DNA of 64,000 bases from Flaccisagitta enflata (GCA_965153355.1 OZ231126.1:5890001-5954000); one strand, 5' to 3'; positions 17,687 to 63,868 are shown, counted from the stretch's first letter. Numbers and translations: made by a program. The notes: a model not told the origin generated them from the letters alone.

Positions 17687-19877
17687 CTTGAAATCTGCTC
17701 CTGAGCGGTGGATCGAGCGCGTTTCCGGGGTATTTCGGGACTGGATGTCCCAAAGCGATGACGCGGAAATCTTCGCTGACTCGCAGCAAATTCCACGAAT
17801 CCAATTCGGCTTGGCTGTGGGTTTCCAGCAGCTTGTCGTAACGCGGAGCAGCCACCAAGAACCTGAGAAATTAATGAAACATGTCAAGGATTCATTCATC
17901 AGATCTATAAAGTGAAATTAGTAAAGTGTATCAGTCATCAGTAAAGTGTCATCTATAAAGTGTCATCAGATCTATAAAGTATATTAATGATTCAGCCACC
18001 ATTTAACACCACCAAGATGAGCATTGGAAATAAGCCGTGGATAGAATGGTGAGTCACTACTCGTCGGTATATTCCTCAGAACAAAGGAATTAAGAGTTAA
18101 GAATCAAGAGTCACTGATGCACACAAATGCGCAAATTAACATAGTCACTGATGGCGCTGCACGCGCGTGAAAGATAAGAGCAGTGTCTTTTAAACACAGG
18201 ATCTACAATACAATCTACAATACGATCTACAATACGACTGTAATTCGTCTGATTTGGATGGCTCCTCCCACCTGCCATCGTCCAGTTGCATTTCTCTGTT
18301 TTCCAGGAGATTGTTTAGAATCGGCAGCACATTTCTCTCGGCTTTGTCGATTCCCTCCAGCACCAAAACTCGGCCCTCGATCGCAGCTTTCACCGCCGCC
18401 TACGGAGATGAAATTGAATATCATTTGCATATTGCAGTGAAGCGTTTACGCGCCAAATTTTCAACATAAGATAAGCAACTTTGTAGGAATGAGTATTAAG
18501 TCTGTCAGGGTGCCTAGAAAAGCCCAAATTAAACTCTGCTCGGTAAAAATGTATTTCCTTTGCAAAAATGCTTTCATATGAACCATTGTGTGACCTTGGT
18601 CAAGAACCATCTTTAGGGTGAGGTTTAATTTTTCATTGAATCTTTTTTAGAATTTAAATTTTCATTTTGCAAATTCTGTTTTTTTTATACAATACTATAG
18701 AAACGTCAAGGGAACCCTAGAGATGATTCCCGATTGATTTGAAAATCAAGCAATGGTTTTCTTAAACATTTTTAGTTGTGGACACGCAACTTTTTAAGAA
18801 GCTTTTTCTGTCCGTTGGTTCATGTGTCTGTCTGTCGGCCCATTGGTCCGTCAGCTTGAATCAAAGGAAAACGCTCAAATCCGCCCCTGCCCAGCCATCC
18901 GCAATTGGTATTGGCCGTGTATCCGGCCTTGTTGCAAAAGAAAAATATCTTTGCCAGGTGAAGTTCAATTTTGGAATTTCTAGGCACCCTGACAGGAGTA
19001 ATATGAACTCGCTGATATATGAACGAAAGCTACATTTTGCGAATGAACTTCTGTCCCCTACCTGATCCAAATAAGAGGCTGTTTGGGCTCTGATTTCTCG
19101 TCTTTGTTTCAAATCTGATTCTGTGGTGTCACGAGACAAAGACACAAACTCGCACTCTTTCCGCGTCAACTCCAAATACTGCATGGCTACGATTCGTCGT
19201 AAGTGGCCTATGAATAAAGTTTGAAGAACATCACATGACATGGTCATAAATACGTGATGTTTAATTAGCCCCAAAGACTTCAGCAATCGAGTTGTACCAC
19301 CCTCAGAGGCAAAACAAGGATCGATATAATTTTGGGCAGTGGCGAAATTACAAGTTTTCGCACTTTTCGGTTCAAGAAGGATGGACGGACGGACGGACAC
19401 AGCCTTTTATAAAGTCGCCTGTCCAATGTCCATGCCTTACCCGGTGATCACATGATAACGTCTTGATCGATAGCTAAGCCTACCTTCAGCGTGAGCAATT
19501 CAGCGCGGAAAGAGTGCGAGTTTGTGTCTTTGTGTTTCTGTTTTACAGGCAGCTCAGTCCCTGATCATCCTCTGCTCACCTGGCGGTCCGATGAGAAAGA
19601 CATCCTGCCCAATGGCTTCCTTTTGCATAAGCCATTTGATGTGTCTGAGATGCGATTGCGGGAGTTGATCTCCAGAGGCTGTCAAGTATCCCGTCGGCAC
19701 GAGTTCAGCCGCTTCAGGTTCCTTTAATTCCAGAGTCACGTCGCCCAACGTCACGGTGCCACCGGAAGCGCGTGACACGGAGAAGGAAGCGGCGCGCGAT
19801 GGAGGGAAGAAACGCGAACGTGTGGCGCAAACGACGAAAGACGACGCGCGCGGGACGCGTAATAAGAATAAACCCAT
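17687..19877 (-). CDS. VWA8: VWA8 (KIAA0564) mitochondrial AAA+ ATPase; first four exons, remainder presumably beyond window start
   Basis: Exons 19877-19580, 19207-19062, 18399-18272, 17862-17687. Arg/Ser-rich presequence-like N-terminus; WLMQKEAIGQDVFLIGPPG, LSRDTTESDLKQRREI, EGRVLVLEGIDKAERNVLPILNNLLENREMQLDDGRFL, FRVIALGHPVPKYPGNALDPPLRSRFQ are diagnostic. Confidence 0.95.
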
Positions 19878-20341
19878 GTTTGCAAAGGTTCACGCTTTTA
19901 GCGGAAATTGTCCCTAATGTTTTTATCTGTCGTTTGTCCCAAAATTCATGATTGTTTTTGCACTTGCAGTCATTTCTGTCTCACACATCAGTCATCACCG
20001 CCACCAGGGACCAAACGGGCTCGCACAATTATAGTTTGTCCGCAATAACATCATCATTCACCACTAACAAGTCGGCTGATAAACAGAAGAAAACAAAACG
20101 AAATGAACGGCATCACTCTTGCTACATACTAATCAACAATGATATCGTAAACATGAGAAAGAGAAACAGAAAATGAGAGGTAGATCAATTGGTTGATCAT
20201 TATAACACGTGAAAAGGATCTGGACTGATCAAAAACAAAATAAGCGAAATCTGCCTAATCACCAACATGATCATTGATCAACTGCTCATGGTCAAGAGTT
20301 AAAGCCCAAATCATGGCTATCGATCATCGAATAAGACGCAT

Positions 20342-63200: not shown

Positions 63201-63868
63201 CGCTCTCATTTCTTTCCTTCTTCTTAACATCATTCCGTTCCTCTTCCACTTTCTCAACCTCATCCTCCTCCCTATCTTCATCCTCATCATCATATTCGTC
63301 GACTTCCTCTTCATCATCATCATCATCATCATCATCATCATCATCATCATCATCAGTCAAGTCATCTAAATCCAGGTCTCCTTCACTCAGATCGCTGCTT
63401 TCATCACTATCGTCGTCCTCATCGTCATCATCGCTTCGGCCGTATTCATCATCATCATCGTCGTCGGTGCTGCCTCCATCTTCCTCAGACTCGTCTCCTC
63501 TTCTTCCTCGTGCTCTTCCTCCCCCTCTCCCTTTCCGTCTTCTTCTCCGTCGCATCATCATGAGTTTCCTTCTTCTCATGACAACCGGATCTTCTTCTCT
63601 CAATCCCTTTTTGGCGTTGTCTGTCGAGGGACGCCTTCTCTCACTGACGTTCTTGTTGTCGTCGTTATTGTCCTTGTCAATGTCCTTGTCCTTGTCGTTA
63701 TTGTCCTTGTCATTGTCATTTCTTTCCTTAAGGCAGTTGTCGATTTCAAGGCGGTTGTCGTCATTGTCAGCTTGCAAGCTGTTGTCATTGTCATATCGCG
63801 AGCTGTCGACAATCGCATCGTTGCCGTCTTCAGCAAGATTGTCTCGTTGGGAAGTGACGACTGGATGA
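51280..63868 (-). CDS. SMG5: Nonsense-mediated decay factor SMG5 (EST1-like, C-terminal PIN domain); 3' portion only, 5' exons lie beyond the window
   Basis: Phase-consistent GT-AG exons: 63868-63044, 62940-~62696 (donor uncertain), 60397-60279, 58508-58323, 58018-57843, 57538-57375, 56134-55683, 55439-54909, 54631-54490, 52404-51509, 51375-51280 (TGA). Peptides GLISLVKIIADWL, ALWYRLSLLLNRLP, ALPEDLAL, LRIAAIRNLG, MAQLRLK-NEVSNLE, SPYLIPNSAALIEHLPLIQRLAASKKFVIVIP-ALIIDELDGLKK..RDSIRWLELQFKNGNRFVRPQ, MVTILTG, IRDFYKKW match the known SMG5 C-terminal half. Confidence 0.92.
52460..54400. repeat. ~1.9-kb degenerate (GTT)n/(GTTGTTGC)n satellite in an SMG5 intron
   Basis: Directly visible; lies between donor 54489 and acceptor 52405. 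Confidence 0.95.
56323..57088. mobile_element. Tc1/mariner-type MITE (TA TSD) in SMG5 intron
   Basis: Long TIR CACCGTCTTTAAATCGAAATGGCAAAT..GTAAACCTTTGTAGCT, TA flanks. Confidence 0.85.
58521..59083. mobile_element. Near-palindromic TA-flanked MITE in SMG5 intron
   Basis: CAGTAGATCTCGTCTAGACTTGAGATAACGGGG / CCCCGTTATCTCAAGTCTAGATGAGATCTACTG; arms complementary over ~270 bp. Confidence 0.85.
59367..60133. mobile_element. hAT-type MITE (8-bp TSD) nested in a CAGT-terminal MITE (~59207-60143)
   Basis: TIR CTAAGCCGGATCAAC / GTTGATCCGGCATAG; GGCTTAAC duplicated at 59359-59366 and 60134-60141. Confidence 0.8.
60962..62533. mobile_element. hAT-type MITE (8-bp TSD) containing a nested CAGT-terminal MITE (61551-62368)
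   Basis: TIR CTGAGCCGGACTT / AAGTCCGGCTCAG; ATTGACAC duplicated at 60954-60961 and 62534-62541; subterminal GGGGCCCCGCGG repeats. Confidence 0.8.

Follow-up and report, generated by a model that had tools for sequence, protein, structure and literature searches.

A compact run of nine co-oriented housekeeping genes, probably transcribed for the most part as separate units, in a repeat-rich genome

The stretch of DNA analyzed here, 64,000 nucleotides (nt) long and hereafter called the window, is eukaryotic, with a G+C content of 41.7%, many microsatellites and canonical GT..AG introns, and it carries on its minus strand nine genes that an original prediction had taken for a candidate operon. 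The order, strand and exact gaps of these genes were confirmed. We consider, with a probability of about one half, that they are simply a cluster of co-oriented genes of the ordinary type, most of them with a promoter of their own, and that overlap or co-transcription is required only of TRIAP1 and the TLDc-domain gene that follows it. A single shared transcript is not demonstrated by the sequence alone, and nothing that we found refutes co-transcription; under any reading, arrangements of this kind are already known.

Stop-to-stop reading frames, checked against Pfam and the Protein Data Bank (PDB), bore out the nine co-oriented minus-strand genes of the original prediction. From high to low coordinates, the order is SMG5 > F-box > TRIAP1 > TLDc > BUD23 > SLC25A21-A > SLC25A21-B > TTF1-like > VWA8, as follows.

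51280..63868, minus strand: SMG5-like gene, the upstream-most gene, verified in its 3' part only
45590..50721, minus strand: F-box/LRR gene (F-box-like Pfam match, 5.9e-10)
44514..45091, minus strand: TRIAP1, 79 codons (UPF0203 Pfam match, 5e-15)
36822..44443, minus strand: TLDc-domain gene (TLD Pfam match, E 8.4e-4, below the Pfam threshold)
31919..36034, minus strand: BUD23-like methyltransferase gene (Methyltransf_25, E 3.6e-5, and Methyltransf_11, E 1.9e-4, generic matches only)
26963..31426, minus strand: mitochondrial carrier A, SLC25A21-like (Mito_carr, 1.2e-18)
22068..25404, minus strand: mitochondrial carrier B, a tandem paralogue of A (Mito_carr, 1.1e-17)
20342..21781, minus strand: TTF1-like frame, intronless, 479 codons, lineage-restricted
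17667..19877, minus strand: VWA8 5' exons (AAA_5, 1.3e-5 and 2.4e-4)

Seven of the gene names in the original prediction are at least partly supported by these matches, but "TTF1-like" and "BUD23" come mainly from the reading frames; the exons of the latter read as those of BUD23. Pfam matches were found in none of the six largest plus-strand frames tested.

The eight predicted stop-to-ATG gaps proved exact when stops and ATGs were placed base by base, the value of 558 nt for the first depending on a terminal SMG5 intron of 132 nt (51377-51508). The spacers are listed below in the same order; positions with a plus sign are counted from the stop upstream and those with a minus sign from the ATG downstream.

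50722..51279, minus strand: spacer 1, SMG5 (stop 51280) to F-box (ATG 50721), 558 nt; ATTAAA about 50 nt past the stop and a TTTCAG acceptor-like site 64 nt before the ATG
45092..45589, minus strand: spacer 2, F-box (stop 45590) to TRIAP1 (ATG 45091), 498 nt; CCAAT at -111 and TTATTCAG 58 nt before the ATG; AATAAA/ATTAAA not found
44444..44513, minus strand: spacer 3, TRIAP1 (stop 44514) to TLDc (ATG 44443), 70 nt, in which both a poly(A) hexamer and an upstream ATG are lacking
36035..36821, minus strand: spacer 4, TLDc (stop 36822) to BUD23 (ATG 36034), 787 nt; an 87-nt (TCTT)n run and AATAAA at +451
31427..31918, minus strand: spacer 5, BUD23 (stop 31919) to carrier A (ATG 31426), 492 nt; AGCCAATGG at -97; no canonical poly(A) hexamer and no good acceptor
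25405..26962, minus strand: spacer 6, carrier A (stop 26963) to carrier B (ATG 25404), 1558 nt, with no canonical poly(A) hexamer in that length
21782..22067, minus strand: spacer 7, carrier B (stop 22068) to TTF1-like (ATG 21781), 286 nt; AATAAA at +73 and a donor-like ACAG/GTCATT at about 21858
19878..20341, minus strand: spacer 8, TTF1-like (stop 20342) to VWA8 (ATG 19877), 464 nt; the final 240 nt contain eight upstream ATGs, canonical poly(A) hexamers are absent, and the 120 nt before the ATG hold no pyrimidine-rich acceptor

Most animal lineages are not known to have operons, and several observations argue for separate promoters in this run. The acceptor-like AGs that had been predicted before several ATGs lie where they had been placed, but they are no better than chance: when the AGs in the 120 nt before every one of the eight ATGs were rated by a simple pyrimidine-tract score and the best was taken, five of the eight reached 14, as against about 2.9 expected from the 36% of random 120-nt windows that score at least as high (binomial tail about 0.12). 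The best scores before the eight ATGs range from 8 to 15, versus 16-17 for real acceptors, of which three in the window were scored. No convincing acceptor precedes VWA8 or SLC25A21-A; the best score is 8 for VWA8 and 14 for SLC25A21-A, the latter at a site 107 nt upstream and behind an upstream ATG. The TTF1-like ATG is preceded by an acceptor (TTGCTTTCTAG, 18 nt upstream), and the cis donor near 21858, which the original prediction had itself named as a possible objection, does exist, and an intron of 60 nt would run from it to that acceptor. CCAAT or ATTGG lies within 120 nt of five of the eight ATGs against a background of 0.21 (p 0.014), and CCAAT in the sense orientation within 120 nt of four of the eight (p 0.005); these p values are uncorrected, with about 13 motifs tried, and the enrichment is a weak hint of promoters in the spacers. 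The eight upstream ATGs of VWA8 and, weakly, the unequal contig depths of neighboring genes in a relative, described below, point the same way. Finally, seven of the eight gaps exceed several-fold the intercistronic distances given for Ciona and Oikopleura in the excerpted text of a published account (PMC7986045).

The locus is a compact series of at least nine co-oriented housekeeping genes of a marine animal with a repeat-rich genome, and most of these genes are, on this basis, probably separate transcription units. Each spacer of 290-790 nt would then be shared by the 3' untranslated region (UTR) of the preceding gene, a small core promoter and the short 5' UTR of the following gene, and TRIAP1>TLDc would be the one junction unable to follow this layout. 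Because a stop-to-ATG gap includes both UTRs, gaps of 286-790 nt fit the spacing seen in C. elegans and chaetognaths and compact separate promoters equally.

A number of points weigh against mostly separate promoters. We infer these promoters; neither promoters nor transcription starts were observed directly. The co-orientation of eight same-strand junctions has a probability of 1/256 (about 0.004), or 1/128 when the tandem carrier pair is discounted; such a run is sometimes expected by chance, because the window was chosen from a very large scan. AATAAA or ATTAAA occurs in only three of the eight spacers (after SMG5, TLDc and carrier B). The CCAAT motifs at -35 (TTF1), -39 (SLC25A21-B), and -52 and -10 (F-box) are too near the ATG for a classical NF-Y box. 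The 70-nt gap between TRIAP1 and TLDc is too small for a poly(A) signal or a promoter, and the layout of SLC25A21-B>TTF1 is operon-like, with AATAAA at +73 followed after about 190 nt by a good acceptor at -18. The spacers, moreover, were predicted to be almost free of transposons, and self-BLAST, which covers within-window repeats only and is thus a partial test of this claim, found no such repeat in any spacer, as against 14% of the window; spacer 6, which contains a miniature inverted-repeat transposable element (MITE)-like sequence, is an exception. Lastly, the observed/expected (o/e) CpG ratio falls from 1.12 in exons, through 0.92 for spacers and 0.84 for other sequence, to 0.56 in within-window repeats. 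The repeats, unlike the housekeeping exons, are thus depleted of CpG; this contrast resembles the transposon-only methylation that the available part of PMC12460157 links to trans-splicing phyla, and it offers a weak lead to the lineage. CpG islands were also considered as promoter marks and were uninformative, o/e being about 1 in exons and spacers alike.

The predicted contrast between short spacers and introns kilobases long is itself weaker than had been stated: kilobase introns are not general, the verified ones measuring 132, 156, 282, 338, 828, 842 and 1560 nt. The MITE predicted in spacer 6 corresponds to the MITE-like element at 25967-26780 (814 bp; 34-nt inverted ends, 85% complementary), without which 744 nt of the spacer remain.

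The TRIAP1>TLDc junction remains hard to explain conventionally. As its 70 nt contain no poly(A) signal, the two genes must overlap or be co-transcribed; the next AATAAA/ATTAAA lies 958 nt past the TRIAP1 stop. The only AG close to the TLDc ATG is a GACAG at -12, which has no pyrimidine tract. The spacer folds into two small hairpins (-14.1 kcal/mol, z -2.0), and 7 of 200 shuffles fold equally well. TRIAP1 itself consists of exon 1 (45091-44968), a GT..AG intron and exon 2 (44629-44514), and the TLDc protein begins with MGNAES, its exon 1 spanning 44443-44305 and its last exon ending at the stop at 36822.

RNA from other samples was compared with 39850-52450, a segment that lacks long tandem repeats and holds spacers 1-3. 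Of the three runs, X1 and X2 provide a relative's metatranscriptome in the form of contigs, and X3 consists of raw poly(A) reads. The word shares of the metatranscriptome runs are small (0.19 and 0.07) and uninformative on habitat. X3 comes from another organism: all of its 1854 placed reads fit only partly, on the repeats at 46586-47006 and 47428-47848, and the other bins are at most 0.18 deep. The relative in X1 is about 93% identical, and its contigs confirm the splicing of the F-box gene and of the 3' part of SMG5; they represent processed RNA, because intron bins such as 47007-47427 are near 0. Depth in X1 is about 5.4-6.4 for SMG5 (two contigs of depth 5-6 lie over the PIN exon), 23.3 for the F-box gene (a 1585-nt contig), 0 for TRIAP1 and about 6 for TLDc. 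The bin 50796-51216, which falls wholly within spacer 1, has a depth of 6.28, and this signal represents either the 3' UTR of SMG5, continuing nearly as far as the F-box acceptor, or about 190 nt of 5' UTR of the F-box gene.

At the TRIAP1>TLDc junction, the X1 bin with TLDc exon 1 has a depth of 2.04, equivalent to about 146 nt at depth 5.9, versus 139 coding nt, and depth is 0 in the three bins (44481-45743) that cover TRIAP1 together with upper spacer 3. For these reasons, the TLDc mRNA of the relative seems to start within about 40 nt of the ATG, inside the spacer and without TRIAP1 exon 2. Among the X1 and X2 contig matches listed, which are a part of the total, neither a leader nor a loose end was present where a gene starts, and none of the contigs spanned a spacer; a gap in contig coverage in itself proves nothing.

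One or more small operons within the run, resolved by spliced-leader trans-splicing, constitute a possible explanation that we put forward tentatively; TRIAP1>TLDc and SLC25A21-B>TTF1-like would be the best candidates, and the downstream mRNAs would receive their leader at an AG shortly before the ATG. The absence of a poly(A) hexamer and of an upstream ATG from the 70-nt gap, and the apparent beginning of the relative's TLDc mRNA inside spacer 3, are consistent with such operons, as is the placement of all the genes, housekeeping in kind, on one strand. At SLC25A21-B>TTF1, use of the TTGCTTTCTAG acceptor, in addition to its operon-like distance from the AATAAA, would remove an upstream ATG at -32. 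Against small operons, however, no leader was seen at a gene start among the contig matches listed, the GACAG before TLDc gives a best score of only 12 versus 16-17 for the real acceptors, and the TTF1 acceptor has a cis donor available.

Comparison with known systems cuts both ways. According to the accessible part of PMC12460157, 18% of the genes of the chaetognath Paraspadella gotoi lie in operons, called at less than 250 bp between genes, of which the longest has nine genes, and transposon-only methylation occurs in three trans-splicing groups, namely the chaetognaths, the ctenophores and early nematodes. The window resembles P. gotoi in its co-oriented housekeeping genes, and the unmethylated genes and methylated transposons described there have a likeness in the CpG o/e values of exons and repeats here; in those excerpts, however, operons are validated by leader-bearing reads, whereas here there are stop-to-ATG gaps alone, of 70-1558 nt. 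In C. elegans, the median intercistronic distance, from poly(A) site to acceptor, is about 100 bp in the portion of PMC7986045 available, and SLC25A21-B>TTF1 (AATAAA, about 190 nt, TTTCTAG) has a spacing of the same order as this SL2-type arrangement. Unlike in C. elegans, five of the eight spacers here have no canonical poly(A) hexamer, and introns here reach several kb. The same excerpts give a median gap of 1 bp and operons of up to seven genes for Ciona, 31-57 bp for Oikopleura and cut-offs of 60-84 bp, with one leader serving both monocistronic and operonic genes in Ciona intestinalis and Oikopleura dioica (PMC7986045); only TRIAP1>TLDc, at 70 nt from stop to ATG, falls in their gap range. 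Set against known operons in general (about 1-250 bp from poly(A) site to acceptor), spacer 3 is within the range and spacer 7 would be so, at about 170 nt, if processing relies on the AATAAA at +73 together with the AG at -18, and spacer 6 (1558 nt, or 744 nt without the MITE) is probably outside it. Calanoid copepods have a 46-nt leader, short 5' UTRs and AAUAAA in about half of cDNAs, as described in part of PMC4664967, and this last proportion resembles the three of eight spacers here; the words "operon" and "polycistronic" are absent from that article. None of the papers listed by a literature search dealt with operons in copepods.

A further explanation concerns TRIAP1 and TLDc only, which would share a mature dicistronic mRNA without trans-splicing or would be overlapping transcripts, with TRIAP1 ending in TLDc intron 1, the rest of the run being conventional. 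This explanation overlaps the favored cluster of mostly separate units, and we regard it as unlikely in this specific form. Insects have dicistronic mRNAs whose first cistron is small and closely precedes the second, and TRIAP1, at 79 codons, is a short upstream cistron of this kind, followed by 70 nt without an ATG and by no AATAAA/ATTAAA until the hexamer 958 nt beyond its stop. Among the relative's contig matches listed, however, none joins both genes, and the contig depth of 0 over TRIAP1 exon 2 and the upper spacer, where TLDc exon 1 is covered, speaks against it, even though a hole in coverage is weak proof. No gene pair of this type containing TRIAP1 was found in a literature search, as judged by titles and the starts of abstracts.

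The arrangement originally proposed, in which one promoter upstream of SMG5 would serve all nine genes as a polycistronic unit exceeding 46 kb, resolved by trans-splicing, appears to us very improbable. It would accord with the nine co-oriented genes, with the six largest plus-strand frames giving no sign of a gene on that strand, with the spacers free of within-window repeats, with the lower number of AATAAA and ATTAAA on the minus strand (58 versus 85 on the plus strand across the 64 kb) and with the nine genes of the longest chaetognath operon reported in the excerpts of PMC12460157. The deficit of minus-strand hexamers would be expected of any long sense-strand transcription. The points against small operons apply to it as well; furthermore, a MITE occupies part of the 1558-nt spacer, two of the genes have no usable acceptor, contig depths in the relative differ at least four-fold between neighbors, the excerpts of the literature consulted describe no animal operon with kilobase introns over such a span, and the size would be at the extreme tail even in operon-rich genomes. 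That an intron-rich unit of nine genes and more than 46 kb, resolved by trans-splicing, should exist in a marine animal lineage without described operons (for example, a calanoid copepod) is a claim to which we accord very little credence. A unidirectional array of the dinoflagellate or kinetoplastid type, which shares long same-strand runs and few canonical poly(A) signals with the window, was rejected: the dinoflagellate leader motif had no match at up to 3 mismatches, the introns are canonical (donors GTGAGT, GTCAGT and GTAAGC; pyrimidine-rich AG acceptors) and the genes, among them VWA8, SMG5 and TLDc, form an animal-like set.

If part of the run were co-transcribed, an undersampled marine lineage would be added to the animals that use operons, and a nine-gene unit, if real, would be among the largest animal operons by span. 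Operons could then persist in a repeat-rich genome with kilobase introns, unlike the classic compact-genome cases, and this would have a bearing on the reasons for the repeated origin of operons and of trans-splicing. Should each gene have its own promoter, the locus would be an ordinary cluster of housekeeping genes, and the only remaining interest would lie in how TLDc is expressed when its start follows the TRIAP1 stop by 70 nt.

At the upstream end of the run, the verified 3' part of SMG5 comprises a PIN-like exon extending to 51509, the intron 51377-51508 and a last exon (51376-51280) with the TGA at 51282-51280. The PIN segment matches PDB entry 2hwy, "Protein SMG5", at E 3.5e-5 over 42 residues. 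The 132-nt terminal intron is canonical GT..AG, and the alignment of the relative's contig record 3 (run X1) stops at 51507, at the donor. Directly upstream of the PIN exon lies an imperfect (GTT)n array of 1.9 kb (52461-54398), which on the minus strand reads as runs of Asn, Gln and Thr with several phases open, and which is either coding low-complexity sequence or intron. An exon at 58185-58580, presumably of SMG5 by a conserved motif, is conserved in three database fragments at 64-92% identity; the exhaustive search gave four matches, the fourth being a WD40 protein aligned over the first 25 residues only, and a word-based search found no longer relatives of this exon. An NPRL3-like tenth gene at 58185-58580 was considered and dropped, its PDB match (E 0.03 only) being probably spurious and the fragments having no family. 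A separate tenth gene may nevertheless lie in 54400-63868. Three other frames gave no meaningful PDB match (one low-complexity match at E 0.11, two empty).

The F-box gene has exons at 50721-50152, 49323-48631, 48348-47976 and 46415-45590, and the relative's 1585-nt contig is spliced exactly as in this model, with joints 49323/50152, 48348/48631 and 46415/47976. In the presumed intron 1 of TLDc, the blocks 39965-40175 and 40841-41035 are covered by a 711-nt contig of the relative (X1, depth 5.9) and are probably unannotated TLDc exons.

In carrier A, exon 1 (31426-31388, 39 nt) ends at a GTGAGT donor and exon 2 starts from 30545; in carrier B, exon 1 (25404-25369, 36 nt) ends at a GTCAGT donor and exon 2 starts from 25212. 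The original prediction must have presupposed these very small first exons. Likeness between the two carriers at the DNA level is left in the last exons only. The genome of Paraspadella gotoi likewise contains many tandem duplicates.

The TTF1-like frame has six relatives in a large protein collection, at 46-61% identity and none of them named, so that its lineage is poorly sampled. With this frame, no Pfam family was found at E 0.01, no Myb family at E 1 in seven members and no PDB match with the seven-member profile. The sole lead for the label is a language-model lead to Myb/TTF1 clusters (0.85-0.88), and membership of TTF1/Myb was not confirmed. A lead to Arthropoda from the same kind of comparison scored 0.88, which is below the level counted as evidence, and the clusters found with the F-box exon were uninformative on lineage. 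The frame is intronless among intron-rich neighbors, and one member has a marginal HTH_Tnp_1 match (E 0.012); it may represent a retrogene, or else a DNA-binding protein that was domesticated. Metagenome contigs scanned with the TTF1-like alignment and with P0004 yielded no related transcript contig. The N-terminus of VWA8 resembles a mitochondrial presequence and is followed by the AAA_5 segments; this gene probably extends below 17687.

Elsewhere in the window, no Rfam family was found, and a tRNA scan gave no tRNA gene. Cys-rich and His-rich minus-strand frames in introns (41765-42103 and 12216-12803) have the look of transposon remnants, with no Pfam match at E 0.01. A minisatellite with the 20-bp unit TCCCAGCCTCGAGGCTCAAA occurs at 3855-4749 and 10009-10720, in both orientations and probably in VWA8 introns, and an 18-bp unit with TTAGGG-like repeats, a weak hint against an arthropod origin, lies at 47681-47759. 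A dispersed short element with GTCCGTCC-type runs and a "CTCTATAAGAGGG" end is found at 46586-47006, 47428-47848, 1000-1250, 2320-2480, 11680-12020, 17700-17900 and 29780-29880. Since this element is abundant in X2 RNA, at a depth above 20,000, and present in the unrelated X3 at 90-95% identity, it belongs to a transcribed repeat family that different organisms share.

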